A DNA stretch of 64,000 nucleotides from a bacterium (GCA_023267535.1 JAHFNC010000002.1:119426-183425), one strand, 5' to 3'; counted from the stretch's first letter, positions 2,551 through 34,854 are shown. A program made the numbers and translations. The notes: a model not told the origin generated them from the letters alone.

Positions 2551-2672
2551 AAACAAATAAAATCACTTCATCTGCTTTGTTAAAAGAAATTTTTATTTCG
2601 TCACTGTACATTTAAGTACACATCCTTATAAAAATTTCTTTTGCCTCGCATCTAAAACAATTTTATTTGTTT
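2551..2672. repeat. Intergenic structured repeat family 1, copy A (conserved TCATCTGCTTTGTT ... CCTCGCATCTA core inside a 13 bp covarying outer stem)
   Basis: Outer arms aaacaaataaaat / attttatttgttt; inner stem agaaatttttat / ataaaaatttct; hairpin tgtac-attta-agtaca; homologous to the copies at 9310, 11806, 25506 and 61302. Confidence 0.7.
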
Positions 2673-2716
2673 CTATTGTGCCTACGGTTTGGATTTTGTA
2701 ATTAATTATAATTAAA

Positions 2717-5711: not shown

Positions 5712-6296
5712 TTACTTGGACAACAAATTTTTCCTTTCTCCAGGAGTTATCAATCCTATGTGTTTATCATTAATGCCCATACAAAAGGATAATGTAGAAG
5801 AGACAGAATTTGAATTCTCTGTTTGTCCGTTTAATGCAAAACCATAAGGTGGGTAATTAATAGTTTTCTTATTTATTTCCTCTTTGCAGTTCTCAGCTTT
5901 ACTCCAAAGATTTTCCATATCTGCCTCCGTTCCTTGAGCAAGTACAATCCCAGGATATGTTTTTTCTAAAGCAGGATTTCTTGGACCATCAAATTCCCAA
6001 ACTTTTAATAGGTCACTGTATTTTGTTCCGATATATTTCCAAGTGTTAGTGTTACTGTCAGTAGCTAACCCATGCAACTCTTTTACTATTTGATTATTTT
6101 CATCACGAAGAACTAAAAAATTATGTCCAGTAAAACCAAATACAAGAGGGTGTTGCATTTTTTCTATACTCCACATTCCAAGTACTAATTTTGGTGTCGG
6201 CTTAACTATTGGATTATGAGTAATCAAATATAAAAACACTAAAATAAATAAACTTAAGATAGAGTCTTTTCTAAATTGTGGAGTAAAGATATTCAT
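5712..6296 (-). CDS. Hypothetical secreted or membrane-anchored protein
   Basis: N-terminal hydrophobic segment ILSLFILVFLYLITH; no recognisable domain. Confidence 0.4.
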   Translation of the reverse strand: MNIFTPQFRKDSILSLFILVFLYLITHNPIVKPTPKLVLGMWSIEKMQHPLVFGFTGHNFLVLRDENNQIVKELHGLATDSNTNTWKYIGTKYSDLLKVWEFDGPRNPALEKTYPGIVLAQGTEADMENLWSKAENCKEEINKKTINYPPYGFALNGQTENSNSVSSTLSFCMGINDKHIGLITPGERKNLLSK

Positions 6297-6313
6297 AATT
6301 TTAAGTTACACAA

Positions 6314-7723
6314 TTAAAATTGTTTGATTATTTCTTGAAACATTTGTGGATTTCCACTTCCTTTACTTTCTTTCATACACTGACCGACAAAAAACATTAA
6401 TAGCTTTTCATTACCACCCTTAAATTCATTCCACTGTGTTTCGTTTGCTTTTGCTACAGTTTCTACAATTTTCTTTAATGCTTCAATATCATTCTTCTGG
6501 ATTAATCCTAATTCTTCAGCCTTTTTCTTAACATCTAAATTTTTATCAGTTAGCATAAAAGGAAGTAAATCCTTTGCTCCGCGAGAGGATAATTCATTTG
6601 CAACAATCATATCAATTAATTCTCTAAAAGATTCTATTGATGGGAAATTAGAAGAGATAAGTTCCTTACTATCTTTTTTAAGAAGACCAAAAATATCTGC
6701 CACTAAATAGTTTGATGCTAGATTAGCATAATCATTATTTTTTCCTTCAATTACTTTTTCAAAATAATCTGCAGTAGACATATCGTTTAGAATTATTTCT
6801 ACGGCTTCATCTTTAAGTGATAATGATTTATATTTTTCTCGTCTTTCTTTTGGAAGTTCTGGAAGTTCTTTTTTCAATTCTTCAATATCAAAAAGTTCTG
6901 ACAAATAAAGTTTTGGAAGATCGGGGTCAGGGAAATAACGATAATCATGAGCATTTTCTTTTTTGCGTTGACTGAAAGTTATTTGTTTGGTTTCATCCCA
7001 TCCGCGAGTTTCTTGAACAATTACACCTCCTTCATTTAAAACTTCAATATGTCGCGCGATTTCAAATTTTATTGCTTCTTCTACTGAGCGAAACGAGTTT
7101 AAATTTTTTACTTCAACTTTTGTGCCGAATTTTGAATCTTTTGAAACAGAAATATTTGCTTCCACTCTCATTTGTCCCATTTCCATATTGGCTTCGGATG
7201 CTCCCACATAACGAAGTATCCTTTGAAGTTCTCTGGCGAAATTTCCAGCGTCTTCAGCATTGTGAATAACTGGCTCAGTAACAAGCTCCATAAGAGGAAC
7301 TCCTGCGCGATTAAAATCAATCAAAGTGTAACCGTCGTTATCATGACCAGACTTGGCAGTATCTTCTTCCAAATGAATACGAGTAAGAGCAATACCTTTT
7401 ATTTCTCCATTTGATACGATAGGGAGCTTGTATTGTGATAACTGATAACCTTTTGGAATATCTGGGTAAAAATAATTTTTTCTATCAAATTCTGTAAAGT
7501 CGGCAATATCTGCACCAACTGACAATCCAACTTTTATTACTTTTCTTATAGCTTCTTTATTTGGAACGGGGAGTGTTCCAGGGTGTGCCATACACACTTC
7601 ACAAATATTTGTATTTGGCTTCTCTGCATTTGGGTCATTCTTACAACCACACCACATTTTGGAATTGGTGTGTAATTCGGCGTGTATTTCAAGACCTATG
7701 GTTGGAGTGTATTCGTTAGACAT
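6314..7723 (-). CDS. gatB: Asp-tRNA(Asn)/Glu-tRNA(Gln) amidotransferase subunit B
   Basis: N-terminus MSNEYTPTIGLEIHAELHTNSKMWCGC...CEVCMAHPGTLPV is typical GatB. Confidence 0.9.
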   Translation of the reverse strand: MSNEYTPTIGLEIHAELHTNSKMWCGCKNDPNAEKPNTNICEVCMAHPGTLPVPNKEAIRKVIKVGLSVGADIADFTEFDRKNYFYPDIPKGYQLSQYKLPIVSNGEIKGIALTRIHLEEDTAKSGHDNDGYTLIDFNRAGVPLMELVTEPVIHNAEDAGNFARELQRILRYVGASEANMEMGQMRVEANISVSKDSKFGTKVEVKNLNSFRSVEEAIKFEIARHIEVLNEGGVIVQETRGWDETKQITFSQRKKENAHDYRYFPDPDLPKLYLSELFDIEELKKELPELPKERREKYKSLSLKDEAVEIILNDMSTADYFEKVIEGKNNDYANLASNYLVADIFGLLKKDSKELISSNFPSIESFRELIDMIVANELSSRGAKDLLPFMLTDKNLDVKKKAEELGLIQKNDIEALKKIVETVAKANETQWNEFKGGNEKLLMFFVGQCMKESKGSGNPQMFQEIIKQF

Positions 7724-20965: not shown

Positions 20966-21016
20966 AGGTGTAACAAAATACAATATAACAAATTTTTTCA
21001 ATAAACAAAAAGAATA

Positions 21017-21166
21017 CTTCGTGAGACGCAGGCGGGAGAATCGGTCACGAATAATTTTTTCGCCGTCGCTCAAAAATTTTCTCGACCCCGTCTTGCTCGT
21101 TTTGCTTGCTAGCAAAACATAGCTCCGACCTTCGACTCCCGACAAAAGCCAAACTATTGGCTTTTT
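21017..21166 (-). repeat. tRNA-associated conserved element, tRNA-Cys copy (terminator hairpin, inverted copy of the tRNA-Cys T-arm/3' end, GGGGTCGAGAAAA...GCGACGGCGAA core, 22 bp direct repeat of the tRNA-Cys 3' end)
   Basis: 21017-21038 cttcgtgagacgcaggcgggag equals 21177-21198; 21125-21143 is the reverse complement of cgggagtcgaacc; the core resembles the copies at 34663 and 62737. Confidence 0.6.
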
Positions 21167-21183
21167 CCTTCTCTCACTTCGTG

Positions 21184-21258
21184 AGACGCAGGCGGGAGTC
21201 GAACCCGCGAATGGCGGTTTTGCAAACCGCAGCGTTAGGCCACTTCGCCACTGCGTCT
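21184..21258 (-). tRNA. tRNA-Cys (anticodon GCA)
   Basis: Reverse complement gives agacgca...gcggtuuGCAaaaccgc...cgggttcgactcccg...tgcgtct. Confidence 0.85.
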
Positions 21259-21289: not shown

Positions 21290-21383
21290 TGCGAACTTTC
21301 TTTATAAACGCTGCGGTTTTAACCGCAGAGATATTTTTAAAATTCGCTTACGCTTATGGACCACTCGCCACTGCGTCTTATTT
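21290..21383 (-). pseudogene. Degenerate partial second copy of tRNA-Cys (5' half plus an anticodon-arm-like hairpin)
   Basis: 18-mer cgccactgcgtcttattt at 21366-21383 equals 21246-21263; acgctgcggttttaaccgcag resembles the anticodon arm; no T-arm or 3' end. Confidence 0.5.
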
Positions 21384-21461
21384 TAATAAGTAGCTTACAA
21401 TGAAATATATTATCACATCTAGAAATATATTTCATTGCGTGATATAGTATTTGTCATTAAT

Positions 21462-21562: not shown

Positions 21563-22090
21563 ATGAATAGACATCTTATTAAACTTCTAAAAGATAAAAA
21601 TATTCTTAAATCTGGGAATTTTATTTTAAGAAGTGGAAAACAGTCAGATTATTATTGTGATATTAAAGAAGCACTTGGATATCCAGAAGTTTTAAATATG
21701 TTGGTGACTGAATTAATAAAATTAGTGCCAACTAACGCTACGTGTATTGCGGGTTGTGGATACGGAGGAATAACTTTAGCTTCATTAGTTGCTTACAAAA
21801 AGAAAATACCGTTAGTACTGGTGAGGGATAAAATTAAAAACCACGGTACTAAAAAAATAATTGACGGATACACTCCAAACAAAAAAGATGTTGTTTGTAT
21901 CATTGATGACGTGTTTACAACTGGAAGCAGCATTAAAGATACTAAAGAAAAACTGGCGTATTTAAAATCAAAATTCACTAAGCCTGTAGTTGTTTTAAAC
22001 AGATCAAGAAAATCAGTAGTTATAAGTATTTTGACTGACAAAAATTTATCTGGGAAAAACACCTCACTGAGAACACAAATTAAATATTAA
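21563..22090 (+). CDS. pyrE: Type I phosphoribosyltransferase, orotate phosphoribosyltransferase-like
   Basis: PRPP-binding motif VVCIIDDVFTTGSS; about 175 aa; the start was moved to MNRHLIK. Confidence 0.6.
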   Translation: MNRHLIKLLKDKNILKSGNFILRSGKQSDYYCDIKEALGYPEVLNMLVTELIKLVPTNATCIAGCGYGGITLASLVAYKKKIPLVLVRDKIKNHGTKKIIDGYTPNKKDVVCIIDDVFTTGSSIKDTKEKLAYLKSKFTKPVVVLNRSRKSVVISILTDKNLSGKNTSLRTQIKY

Positions 22091-22760
22091 ATTCTTTTGG
22101 TATTTCTGTTTCTATTAAATATTTTTTATCATTCAAGATAAATTCTATCTTTTGAGCATGGAGCATTAATCTCTGATTATCAATTATTGTTCCGTAAATT
22201 TTATCTCCAATTATAGGGTGTTTAATATATTTCATATGAGCTCTTAATTGATGAGTTCTTCCAGTTATCGGATTTAGTTCTACTAGAGTATTTCCATTTT
22301 TATTTCCTAAAACTTTTACATTGGTTATTGCTTCTCTTAATTCACCTCTTAAATTTGTCGGATTTGCAACTTGTCTATAATTTTTCTTTTCTCTTCCGAG
22401 TGGTGCGTTTATTACAAATTCATTATCATTTATAATTCCTTCAACTAGAGCTATGTAAGTCTTTTTTATTTGTCTTTCTTTAAAAAAACTTTTAAGACTA
22501 TCAAAAGTTTTTTGATTTTTTGCAACTAAAATTATACCGCTAGTATCCCTGTCTAATTTATGAACTAATCCTCCAAGATTTATTATTCTTCCATCTTGTA
22601 ATTTCTTTTCATTACTAATATCAAAAGTTTGTGGATATTTTTCTTTTAGATAATCGAGAAGTGTTTCTTCGCTAGAATAATCAAAAGGATGAACAACTAA
22701 ACCGGCAGGTTTGTTGAAAGCTACGACGTTGTCATCTTCAAAAGAAATGGGTAAATTCAT
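22080..22760 (-). CDS. RluA-family pseudouridine synthase
   Basis: Catalytic motif HKLDRDTSGIILVAKN. Confidence 0.8.
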   Translation of the reverse strand: MNLPISFEDDNVVAFNKPAGLVVHPFDYSSEETLLDYLKEKYPQTFDISNEKKLQDGRIINLGGLVHKLDRDTSGIILVAKNQKTFDSLKSFFKERQIKKTYIALVEGIINDNEFVINAPLGREKKNYRQVANPTNLRGELREAITNVKVLGNKNGNTLVELNPITGRTHQLRAHMKYIKHPIIGDKIYGTIIDNQRLMLHAQKIEFILNDKKYLIETEIPKEFNI

Positions 22761-22807
22761 ACTCGCACTTTATCATATTTTGATGTATAATCTCTAGACA
22801 TAAATAA

Positions 22808-22870
22808 GCCCAGGTGGCGAAATTGGCAAGAAGACAACTGTGCACTTGCCGTAGCAAGTAAGTTGTCTTC
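22808..22870 (+). pseudogene. Decayed partial copy of tRNA-Leu-TAG fused to a terminator-like hairpin
   Basis: gcccaggtggcgaaattgg (22808-22826) is identical to the first 19 nt of the tRNA at 22920; followed by cacttgccgtagcaagt (anticodon-arm-like) inside the hairpin gaagacaact...agttgtcttc plus a T-run. Confidence 0.5.
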
Positions 22871-22919
22871 TTTTTAAAATCAGTCAACTGTGTTAGTTTA
22901 AAATAAAAAATAAATACAA

Positions 22920-23001
22920 GCCCAGGTGGCGAAATTGGTAGACGCACTTGCCTTAGGAGCAAGCGCCGTAAGGCATGAAGGTTCAAGTCCTTTCCTGGGC
23001 A
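22920..23001 (+). tRNA. tRNA-Leu (anticodon TAG), type II
   Basis: gcccagg...cttgccuUAGgagcaag...long variable arm...ggttcaagtcc...cctgggca. Confidence 0.85.
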
Positions 23002-23233
23002 CATCAATAGAAAAATACAGACTTTCCAGTCTGTGTTTTTCTATTGACTGTGTCTCTGTAGAAGAAAGCCAACTGCTTGGCTTTCGTAAGGACTTGAATA
23101 CGGGGTCGCGAAACTACTTCGAGCGGAGCGAGGAGTTTCGTGACCAAGCCATTTCGAAAAGATTCCTTTCCTAAAATAAAAAGATATGTTTCGTGACTAA
23201 GTCTTTAGTATATATCTTTAATAAGAAAAGAAA

Positions 23234-34550: not shown

Positions 34551-34634
34551 GCGTAGGTGGTGGAGTGGTCAATCACAACAGACTGTAAATCTGTCGCCCT
34601 TCGGGCTTCGCTGGTTCAAATCCAGCCCTACGCA
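34551..34634 (+). tRNA. tRNA-Tyr (anticodon GTA), type II with a long variable arm, no encoded CCA
   Basis: gcgtagg...acagacuGUAaaucugu...cgcccttcgggcttc...gctggttcaaatccagc...cctacgca; preceded by an extended -10 tgctataat. Confidence 0.85.
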
Positions 34635-34662
34635 CAAATAAAAATCCCGAAAGGGATTTTTT

Positions 34663-34800
34663 GCGTAGGGTTGGATTTGAACGGGAAAGGGGTCGGGAAA
34701 ACGGGAGTTTTCCCGTGGCGGAAGAATGGAAACCGAGGGGTTTCCAAACCGAAGCGATTGATAATGAGCGAAGGTTGTGAAATTACAGCCCTACGCACCA
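34663..34800 (+). repeat. tRNA-associated conserved element, tRNA-Tyr copy (inverted copy of the tRNA-Tyr T-arm/3' end, roughly 100 nt conserved core with two hairpins, direct copy of the tRNA 3' end)
   Basis: Terminator aaaaatcccgaaagggatttttt at 34640-34662; gcgtagggttggatttgaacg at 34663-34683 is the reverse complement of the tRNA 3' region; core GGAAAGGGGTCGGGAAAACGGGAGTTTTCCCGTGGCGGAAGAATGGAAACCGAGGGGTTTCCAAACCGAAG; cagccctacgcacca at 34786-34800. Confidence 0.6.
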
Positions 34801-34854
34801 TTTAGCACAATTAGTAACTCGTGACCAAATCAGAGCCCCTCACCAAAAGATTAA

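Follow-up and report, generated by a model that had tools for sequence, protein, structure and literature searches.

Short structured elements matched to tRNA 3' ends lie directly downstream of tRNA genes in bacteria of the candidate phyla radiation

We analyzed a stretch of 64,000 nucleotides (nt) of bacterial DNA (GCA_023267535.1 JAHFNC010000002.1:119426-183425, one strand, referred to here as the window) and found that the element immediately 3' of its tRNA-Cys gene, at positions 21017 to 21198 on the minus strand, is a canonical member of an abundant and widespread subfamily of structured elements, designated type A, rather than an old relative of the elements that follow the tRNA-Tyr and tRNA-Thr genes of the same window. 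The elements are about 150 to 190 nt long and noncoding, and they are located directly 3' of tRNA genes in Paceibacteria-type bacteria of the candidate phyla radiation (CPR). This family of tRNA-end-matched structured elements in CPR bacteria appears not to have been described before.

The sequence CTTCGTGAGACGCAGGCGGGAG is present exactly twice in the window, at 21017 to 21038 and at 21177 to 21198, with zero occurrences expected. Thus, the 22-bp direct repeat of the tRNA-Cys 3' end that the original prediction reported was borne out, and the full identity is in fact 23 nt (21016 to 21038 and 21176 to 21198). The gene-side copy spans the region from the last two bases of the T-loop to the end of tRNA-Cys (16 nt) plus 6 to 7 bases of the trailer. 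In tRNA orientation, the gene and the parts of the element are as follows.

21183-21257, minus strand: intact tRNA-Cys(GCA) gene (ARAGORN; Rfam tRNA, 60.1 bits)
21177-21198, minus strand: X, the left repeat copy, comprising the last 16 nt of tRNA-Cys and 6 to 7 trailer nt (repeat search)
21167-21176, minus strand: aA, a degenerate antisense copy of the acceptor 3' strand (sequence reading; homologous position in other copies)
21144-21165, minus strand: H1, the hairpin AAAAGCCAATAGTTTGGCTTTT between the anti-acceptor and anti-T segments (conserved family hairpin)
21131-21143, minus strand: aT, GTCGGGAGTCGAA, the reverse complement of the T-loop and the T-stem 3' strand, which forms the 5' strand of helix P1
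21088-21130, minus strand: core arm A (covariance model alignment; family covariation)
21043-21087, minus strand: core arm B (covariance model alignment; family covariation)
21017-21042, minus strand: X' (T'A'), the second repeat copy (tRNA-Cys 3' end in direct orientation), which forms the 3' strand of P1

A 5-nt loop, CGAAG, directly precedes aA, which reads TGAGAGAAGG against an expected TGAGACGCAGG. The two antisense segments (21131 to 21143 and 21167 to 21176) make up an inverted copy of the tRNA end, Xrc, that is able to pair with X' at 21017 to 21042. The inverted T-arm copy that had been predicted is present, in that CGGGAGTCGAA at 21131 to 21141 is 100% complementary to 21193 to 21203 over 11 nt (or over 13 nt with one mismatch), but the "ggtcgg" assigned to its end is part of a core helix, Pa. 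The hairpin AAAAGCCAATAGTTTGGCTTTT, previously read as a terminator, also exists, but no U-tract comes after it; it represents the H1 hairpin of the family, a variant of GCCAACTGCTTGGC, and is not evidently a terminator. Between tRNA-Cys and its element there is no separate terminator hairpin (T1). The core of the Cys copy is 88 nt long, is GC-richer, and lies between Xrc and X'. Arm A consists of Pa (GUC/GAC), an internal loop (GGA/AA), a second helix, Pb (GCU/AGC), and the H2 hairpin GUUUUGCU-AGCA-AGCAAAAC. Arm B starts with GGUC/GACC, followed by a GA/GU internal loop, GAA/UUC and a bulged A, and its outer part is a long A-U stem with a tandem G.A motif and the apex GCGACGGC. Folding of 21017 to 21140 gave -45.3 kcal/mol (z = -3.7).

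Membership of the Cys copy in type A was assigned with a covariance model, R1, built from an alignment (A2) of 64 sequences, none of which came from the window. R1 scored the Cys core at 98.4 bits (E = 9.4e-24) over its full length, with the alignment covering model positions 1 to 95. Because a model built entirely from sequences outside the window gave a full-length match of this strength, the Cys copy is regarded as a canonical type A member, and the proposal that its core is older or more diverged is contradicted. Two other copies had also been said to have GACGGGGTCGAGAAAA...GCGACGGCGAA in common with this core. Of this, the Tyr and Thr copies have only GGGGTCGNGAAA(A), at 12 of 13 nt; GCGACGGCGAA has no second occurrence in the window. 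In pairwise local alignments of the Cys core with either the Tyr core or the Thr core, the likeness, which was expected to exceed shuffled chance, is borderline, with 50 to 59 of 1,000 dinucleotide shuffles scoring as high (p about 0.05).

Nor is the Cys copy simply the third of three. The motif GGGGTCGNGAAA has four matches in the 64 kb, all just 3' of a tRNA gene (Cys, Leu-TAG, Tyr, and Thr-GGT) and in tRNA orientation, against an expectation of 0.37, and none of 100 shuffles reached four. There are four copies in the window and, in addition, two decayed right ends. The architecture that had been proposed as common holds at all four loci, in the same order (tRNA, hairpin, inverted 3'-end copy, structured core, direct 3'-end repeat), and it generalizes to the family. 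The copies other than Cys are as follows.

23003-23172, plus strand: degenerate type A element after tRNA-Leu(TAG) (22920-23002), R1 score 26.7 bits (E = 4.7e-5); parts are T1 at 23004-23047, H1 at 23064-23085, aT at 23088-23098, arm B at 23102-23145, and X', TCCTTTCCT, at 23164-23172
23188-23206, plus strand: remnant of a further type A copy, a decayed solo right end, GTTTCGTGACTAAGTCTTT, 84% identical to 23135-23153 and comprising the arm B 3' strand and T-loop-like bases
34636-34798, plus strand: type B element after tRNA-Tyr (34551-34635); parts are a hairpin, Xrc at 34662-34682, a three-hairpin core at 34683-34785, and X' at 34786-34798
34817-34844, plus strand: right end of a decayed type A copy, ACTCGTGACC, and after it a third copy of the tRNA-Tyr 3' end, diverged in sequence, AAATCAGAGCCCCTCACC (weak R1 match to 34830)
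62701-62865, plus strand: type B element after tRNA-Thr(GGT) (62625-62700); parts include the core at 62749-62851 and X' at 62852-62865

The Cys and Leu-TAG cores are alike in layout and share an extra hairpin, GCCAA..TTGGC (p = 0.006), which defines type A. The Leu-TAG element has no arm A, and its R1 match covers arm B only. The Tyr and Thr cores, designated type B, are about 85% identical and differ by a compensatory change from G-C to A-U; R1 does not detect them (8 to 10 bits). The only part common to types A and B is the base of one hairpin (GGGGUCG...CGUGRC). The Thr copy includes a perfect 30/30 palindrome at 62688 to 62748 that takes in the tRNA end. Each of the two decayed right ends is followed by another diverged copy of a tRNA end, and copies decay with distance from the tRNA, as in these two remnants. 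The X' of the Tyr copy carries an encoded CCA and the end of the tRNA-Tyr gene itself does not: the displaced copy (34786 to 34799) reads ...CCCTACGCACCA, and the end of the gene (34622 to 34638) reads ...CCCTACGCACAA. This difference would be expected if the present 3' end of the gene came from the insert.

The family extends well beyond the window. In the CPR genome loci retrieved through relatives of the window RluA protein, many tRNAs have this architecture behind them. A metagenome scan with a strict type A pattern found at least 120 loci, and among the matches listed (129), 83 were within 600 nt 3' of a same-strand tRNA, representing 34 anticodons. R1 found 176 copies (133 plus 43) in fetched CPR genome or metagenome loci (labeled L114, L115, and so on below), often with several copies per 10 to 15 kb. 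Of the 133 matches, 97 were within 400 nt 3' of a same-strand tRNA, with more than 34 anticodons represented. R1 had no match in about 0.2 Mb of non-CPR genome loci. In loci that were chosen because they hold an element, 99 of 236 tRNAs have a downstream repeat of their 3' end. Presence is patchy among close relatives. For example, the tRNA-Cys genes of the two closest relatives (L114 and L115) have no element and tRNA-Leu-TAA starts 26 to 32 nt downstream, and the tRNA-Leu-TAG element is present in L114 and absent from L115. Tandem or mixed arrays were found in L118, L149, L150, L159, L161, and L186. Most copies that seemed to be orphans sit behind the T-arm and acceptor ends of tRNAs that ARAGORN had missed.

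The fold of the core is supported by covariation. Pairing of Xrc with X' (P1) closes a three-way junction with two covarying arms, and about 35 conserved bases surround the junction and occupy the internal loops of the arms. In tRNA-sense orientation, the type A consensus starts with the anti-T segment ending in UUCGAA, an A, Pa (3 bp), GGA, Pb (3 bp), AUG, and H2; continues with Pb', GA, Pa', GG, GGUC-GN-GAA, the long stem, the tandem G.A, and the apex GCGACGGC; and ends with A UUC-GU-GACC and then X'. In a MAFFT alignment, 93% of the cells were paired compared with 74.5% in shuffles, and there were 342 double-sided changes compared with 98. A model-based alignment of 127 distinct copies (A3) had 96% of the cells paired compared with 69% in shuffles and 32 to 57% in slid controls, and all 30 pairs had double-sided changes. 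These values are to be read with two biases in mind: Pa and Pb were partly prefiltered in A2, and A3 was fitted to the model. On the tRNA-sense strand, the ratio of G.U to A.C was 80:21 in the arms (p = 3e-9) and 16:7 in P1, and this excess of G.U indicates that the tRNA-sense strand is the strand that folds, either as RNA or as single-stranded DNA. The lengths of the cores fall into all three residue classes modulo 3, indicating that the core is not coding. The H1 hairpin has a consensus loop, CUGC, as in GCCAACUGCUUGGC, and in many copies it splits the antisense part at the boundary between the acceptor and the T-stem. A kissing interaction between the CUGC loop of H1 and a GCAG loop in H2 was considered and was not supported across copies. 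Comparison of the conserved loops by eye with kink-turns, hammerheads, and hairpin ribozymes gave no consistent match, and Rfam gave none.

Each element is closely matched to the tRNA that it follows. Over 19 nt, X' has a mean of 0.95 mismatches to its own tRNA, compared with 6.6 to tRNAs with the same anticodon at other loci, and, despite the divergence of the cores, X, Xrc, and X' still match one another. In 40 of 93 copies, the first base of X' is T-loop C56, and X' usually ends at the end of the tRNA or 1 to 3 nt beyond it; its usual length is 19 nt, abutting a conserved ...UUCGUGAC. The direct repeat is 12 nt or longer in 68 of the 93, with a range from 5 to more than 40 nt. In 39 of the 93, X' extends 8 nt or more into the trailer, partly through tandem units. 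In a quarter of the copies, it is truncated before the acceptor end. Xrc and X' are only 4 to 5 nt long in about a quarter of copies, mainly those of tRNA-Ala, Arg-GCG, Val-CAC, and Lys-CTT. The aT segment holds the reverse complement of the T-loop (ATTTGAA for TTCAAAT in Tyr; CTTGAA for TTCAAG in Leu), and at acceptor positions with G.U or mismatched pairs, aA follows the complement of the 3' strand by 5:1. Most copies are separated from their tRNA by a terminator-like hairpin that has a U-tract. An idea that the direct repeat ends at the center of the palindrome was dropped, as no correlation was found.

Our tentative interpretation, to which we assign a probability of roughly 0.4, is that the unit X-hairpin-Xrc-core is a nonautonomous, tRNA-specific insertion ("homing") element. 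On entry, the element's own X would recombine with the segment of the cognate tRNA gene from the T-loop to the 3' end. The tRNA gene would be rebuilt from the X and the hairpin of the element, and the old 3' end, pushed downstream, would become X'. A folded single strand, either a transcript or single-stranded DNA, may present the attachment sequence as the P1 duplex, with the conserved junction as a possible handle for a putative trans-acting protein. Recombination or slippage between X and X' could result in precise loss, tandem arrays, and homogenization. Family membership, the linkage to tRNAs, the covarying fold, the folding of the tRNA-sense strand, the cognate repeat that resembles an attachment site, patchy presence, the arrays and decayed copies, the housekeeping-like neighbors with no protein encoded in cis, and the results against a decayed tRNA copy support this interpretation.

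Integrative elements such as prophages, integrative and conjugative elements, and genomic islands use the T-loop-to-3'-end region of tRNA genes as attB, and Williams is said to have described this in 2002 as the T-loop sublocation of tyrosine integrases. The elements studied here likewise have a flanking direct repeat of the tRNA 3' end from the T-loop to the end of the gene or just past it, leave the tRNA intact, by way of a putative inserted replacement 3' end, and occur in arrays at one tRNA, as from successive insertions. However, the insert is only about 150 to 190 nt and has no integrase or other open reading frame (ORF), it includes an inverted copy of the attachment sequence and a conserved, covarying structured core, and cores that are homologous are found with more than 34 tRNAs, the repeat being matched to the tRNA in each case.

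A closer parallel in layout is the phage CTX-phi and the integrative mobile elements exploiting Xer (IMEX), which integrate via a folded single-stranded attP, a forked hairpin; integron attC sites fold likewise. The integrated order of CTX-phi and IMEX (attachment site, cargo, inverted attachment site, spacer of about 90 to 95 nt, attachment site) is also found here. As in these systems and attC sites, sense and antisense copies on one folded strand rebuild the target duplex, the folding is strand specific, G.T(U) pairs are tolerated, an extrahelical feature (here, H1) breaks the symmetry of the stem, and mixed arrays are found at one site. By analogy with CTX-phi and IMEX, P1 could be the equivalent of the forked-hairpin attP, with H1 as its mark of asymmetry. 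Unlike in those systems, the target is a copy-specific tRNA 3' end rather than an invariant dif or attI site, a hairpin makes up the entire cargo, and the spacer is a highly conserved three-way junction.

The elements also resemble MITEs (miniature inverted-repeat transposable elements) and repetitive extragenic palindromic sequences (REP) with their mosaic arrangements (bacterial interspersed mosaic elements, BIME) in being small, noncoding, multicopy, intergenic, and hairpin forming and in being able to give terminator-like structures. In contrast to MITEs, the terminal repeats are not constant within the family but are copied from the adjacent tRNA, and there is no target duplication of fixed length (5 to more than 40 nt). 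Furthermore, unlike MITEs, REP, and BIME, the copies are not near-identical but have diverged with compensatory changes.

Several results weigh against the homing interpretation. No autonomous copy was found, and no recombinase, reverse transcriptase, or nuclease recurs among the ORFs within 2.5 kb of the 133 R1 copies. No circular junction was seen. Among the fetched loci, candidate pairs of empty and filled alleles were either identical or distant, and no empty/filled polymorphism was seen between near-identical strains, for which the contigs with the same protein were identical or too short. BLAST searches with the core against phage and plasmid collections yielded no match, and no element match was obtained in IMG/VR. 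There, a scan with a loose motif gave 113 matches, none of which was beside a tRNA and all of which look random; R1 had no match in 0.92 Mb of viral loci, all with the loose motif. Two stricter viral scans gave 0 and 5 matches, with one weak R1 match on a GC-rich, coding-like sequence in a contig without a tRNA. Copies within one genome are diverged, with compensatory changes, which points to long-term selection on structure rather than recent bursts. New tRNA specificities (for more than 34 tRNAs) are hard to account for because Xrc and X' must both change and because the segments derived from the target are interleaved with conserved modules (H1 and the core). Conservation of about 35 bases together with an elaborate junction would be more usual in a functional RNA than at a recombination site. 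Furthermore, Xrc and X' are only 4 to 5 nt long in about a quarter of the copies.

A close rival, which we consider possible but somewhat doubtful, is that the element is a functional noncoding RNA, linked in cis to the tRNA and part of its transcription unit. Transcription reading through the first hairpin would produce Xrc, the core, and X'. P1 and H1 would form a minihelix that resembles the acceptor and T-arm and carries the 3' end of the cognate tRNA, a possible substrate for RNase P, RNase Z, and the CCA-adding enzyme. The junction would bind a protein or ligand, and the RNA would take part in maturing its own tRNA, in controlling its quality, or in regulating it. Xrc might, for instance, pair alternatively with the 3' third of the tRNA or with X'. 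The strong covariation and the conserved bases around the junction and in the internal loops are what such an RNA would show, as are the bias toward G.U on the sense strand (80:21) and the constant tRNA orientation of the element. The retention of the X-Xrc-X' match despite core divergence would be expected if both pairings matter, and the frequency of 3'-end repeats (99 of 236 tRNAs in the element-selected loci) is found in genomes that are usually described as streamlined. About ten copies have, by reading of the sequence, a strong terminator-like hairpin after X'. The absence of a terminator between tRNA and element in the Cys copy speaks for this rival; the terminator-like hairpin and U-tract found in that position in most copies speak against it. 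A functional RNA is also hard to reconcile with orthologous tRNAs of related genomes that have no element, with decayed copies and stacked arrays of different core types at one tRNA, with a P1 in which tRNA identity features, G.U pairs among them, are not retained, and with the truncation of X' before the acceptor end in a quarter of copies.

It is improbable that the element is a guide-type RNA for a trans-encoded, RNA-guided enzyme, with the core as the scaffold and X' as a 19-nt variable "spacer" after the invariant T-loop GTT. With Xrc as another guide, directed at the opposite strand, both strands would be recognized, as they are by IS110 bridge RNAs and TIGR-Tas, and the enzyme would recombine, cleave, or modify the tRNA gene or pre-tRNA. 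The fixed register of X' (C56 in 40 of 93 copies), its usual length of 19 nt abutting ...UUCGUGAC, the alternation of variable, target-matched segments with conserved modules (aA, H1, aT, core, X'), and the tight cognate match would fit this explanation. The bridge RNA of IS110, the omega-RNA of IS605 TnpB, the msr-msd of retrons, and the exon-binding sequences of group II introns similarly combine a scaffold with short target-matching segments, and in retrons, as here, terminal inverted repeats close two hairpin domains. However, no nuclease or recombinase gene was adjacent in the loci examined, whereas bridge RNAs, TnpB-IscB omega-RNAs, and retrons are associated with recombinase, nuclease, or reverse transcriptase genes, none of which adjoins the copies examined here. 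The pairing segments differ from those of the IS110, IS605, retron, and group II RNAs in being long (9 to 13 plus 9 to 13 nt) and fully complementary to each other, so that Xrc and X' would pair in cis, and the element, unlike those RNAs, has no Rfam match. In addition, the intact neighboring tRNA gene would be a perfect self-target, and the subtype with a short P1 has almost no guide.

Even less probable is a local by-product of replication errors, in which fold-back template switching at the terminator hairpin of the tRNA extends a palindrome into the tRNA 3' end and repriming at the near-palindromic T-loop (TTCGAA) copies X again. The cores would then be unrelated passengers within the hairpin loop so formed, and nothing would move or function. 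Long, perfect palindromes centered just beyond the tRNA end, such as the 30/30 palindrome of the Thr copy, could arise in this way, as could the extension of X' into the trailer in 39 of 93 copies, the T-loop as the usual boundary, and a 319-nt, 99% inverted repeat in L230 that starts from a tRNA end and flanks nrdAB. This explanation does not account for the fact that 176 copies from many genomes have a homologous, covarying 95-nt core and a conserved H1, placed at the same two positions throughout. The end of the direct repeat does not track the palindrome center, and many T-loops that are not palindromic (TTCAAGT, TTCAAAT) have the same layout. A decayed tandem tRNA duplicate (a tRNA pseudogene) or chance resemblance is very improbable: aA and part of aT do resemble the acceptor and T-stem 5' strands, as the stems are self-complementary, but the reverse-complemented T-loop in aT and the 5:1 preference of aA for the complement of the 3' strand rule out a tandem duplicate, and the repeat and motif statistics exclude chance.

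We regard it as rather unlikely that the elements are the RNA or single-stranded DNA parts of a programmable recombination or processing system with its protein in trans, in which sense and antisense copies of a tRNA "address" of about 19 nt are mounted on a three-way-junction scaffold. If this were true, it would be a new class of nucleic acid-guided targeting of tRNA genes or pre-tRNAs in CPR bacteria, distinct from the CRISPR, OMEGA, bridge RNA, and TIGR systems. More generally, if the observations on the family hold, a substantial share of CPR tRNA genes carry a structured module that encodes the address of their own tRNA in both orientations. As an insertion element, the module would be a new, protein-less, site-specific selfish element and a minimal model for the evolution of attachment sites, homing, and tRNA gene targeting. 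As a functional RNA, it would be a new tRNA-linked regulatory or processing RNA in very small genomes. The tRNA-end repeats and long palindromes can also confuse tRNA annotation, attB prediction, and metagenome assembly, and the covariance model R1 is an immediate means of mapping type A elements.

The window reads as an AT-rich genome of Patescibacteria, Paceibacteria-like, because of its gene content and the relatives of its RluA protein. The genes are ordinary chromosomal ones, including DnaG, RpoD, Obg, GatB, MiaA, ParB, RelA/SpoT, IF-2, ClpB, TrmD, and others, with TopA and DprA read on identical genes of contigs L263 and L264, and the annotated part of the window (about half of the large ORFs) is an ordinary CPR chromosome. 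Relatives of the window RluA protein were from CPR bacteria only at 62 to 69% identity, followed by Paceibacteria and Giovannonibacteria at about 40%. Contig L263 carries an identical Cys core, and L264 ends before it. No reverse transcriptase gene was visible beside the four window copies in Pfam searches of eight flanking ORFs. Recurrent neighbors of the elements are housekeeping-like genes (L19, RluA, LepA, PilM, and RuvA, by sequence reading) and LAGLIDADG-like endonucleases. The gene for the RluA-type pseudouridine synthase (window 22080 to 22760, minus strand) repeatedly adjoins tRNA-Leu-TAG and its element, in the window, in L114 and L115, and in 10 metagenome loci; its orientation in the window is inverted relative to that in L114 and L115.

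In searches of Rfam 15 (T-box, YrlA, and ribozyme families included) with gathering and E-value thresholds, only the tRNAs passed. The best subthreshold matches at the Cys locus were U4 (19.5 of 46 bits) and YrlA (17.1 of 69 bits). No description of the element was found in the literature searched, in which the nearest paper was an unrelated one on group I introns in Patescibacteria tRNAs. Intron-containing tRNAs have been reported for Patescibacteria (PMC13011429). In five loci in which a tRNA had been missed (L178, L190, L209, L212, and L149), the sequence upstream of the orphan copy reads, by eye, like a group I intron (...GATATAGTCC...), consistent with that report.

A second family of structured cores, type C, occupies the same slot between the antisense and sense copies of the tRNA end. 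It has the form GCCNNNNUGAG...hairpin...GG(G/U)GUACUGNNNCUGUAAGNNN, and the core ends in GUACUGNNNCUGUAAG. Type C cores were found downstream of tRNAs in L118, L159, L161, L186, L188, L197, L211, L214, L229, and L230. Where types A and C both occur, type C is usually nearer the tRNA, and arrays of the form tRNA-[type C]-[type A] recur.

Two elements, one in L179 and one in L213, are downstream of a shared sequence that is not a tRNA (...CAAGGTCTCACA..GTAATTCCG.GACCGAG...), at about 200 nt upstream of the R1 match at 2595 to 2689 (minus strand) in L179 and at about 10400 to 10500 in L213. The shared sequence may represent the 3' terminus of a different stable RNA gene, and this suggests that association with tRNAs is not a strict rule for the elements.

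In L230, the two arms of the 319-nt, 99% inverted repeat (2138 to 2456 and 6249 to 6567) flank a 3.8-kb nrdA/nrdB segment, and the repeat starts exactly at the 3' end of tRNA-Leu-GAG. The right arm adjoins a normal aA-H1-aT-core-X' series, the X' of which matches the tRNA-Leu-GAG 4.4 kb away. The arrangement reflects either an inversion-duplication or an element "hairpin loop" with room for kilobases.

Partial copies of the 5' half of a tRNA were also observed 110 to 120 nt upstream of two intact tRNA genes in the window, those for tRNA-Cys and tRNA-Leu-TAG (the latter copy at 22806 to 22875, plus strand). The Cys copy is as follows.

21310-21385, minus strand: partial copy of the tRNA-Cys 5' half, upstream of a promoter-like site for tRNA-Cys at 21295-21268

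Both partial copies have an exact repeat of the 5' end of 19 to 21 nt, followed by an anticodon arm that has become a tetraloop hairpin and then by a T-run. In the Cys copy, the repeat is 19 nt and covers the leader and tRNA positions 1 to 16, and the 3' strand of the tetraloop hairpin is a 13-nt perfect reverse complement of tRNA-Cys. Similar 5' repeats are found upstream of other CPR tRNAs (Val-CAC in L169, Arg-GCG in L190, Arg and Ser in L118, and Leu-TAG in L129), and some of those in CPR bacteria enclose a conserved structured insert of about 140 nt.

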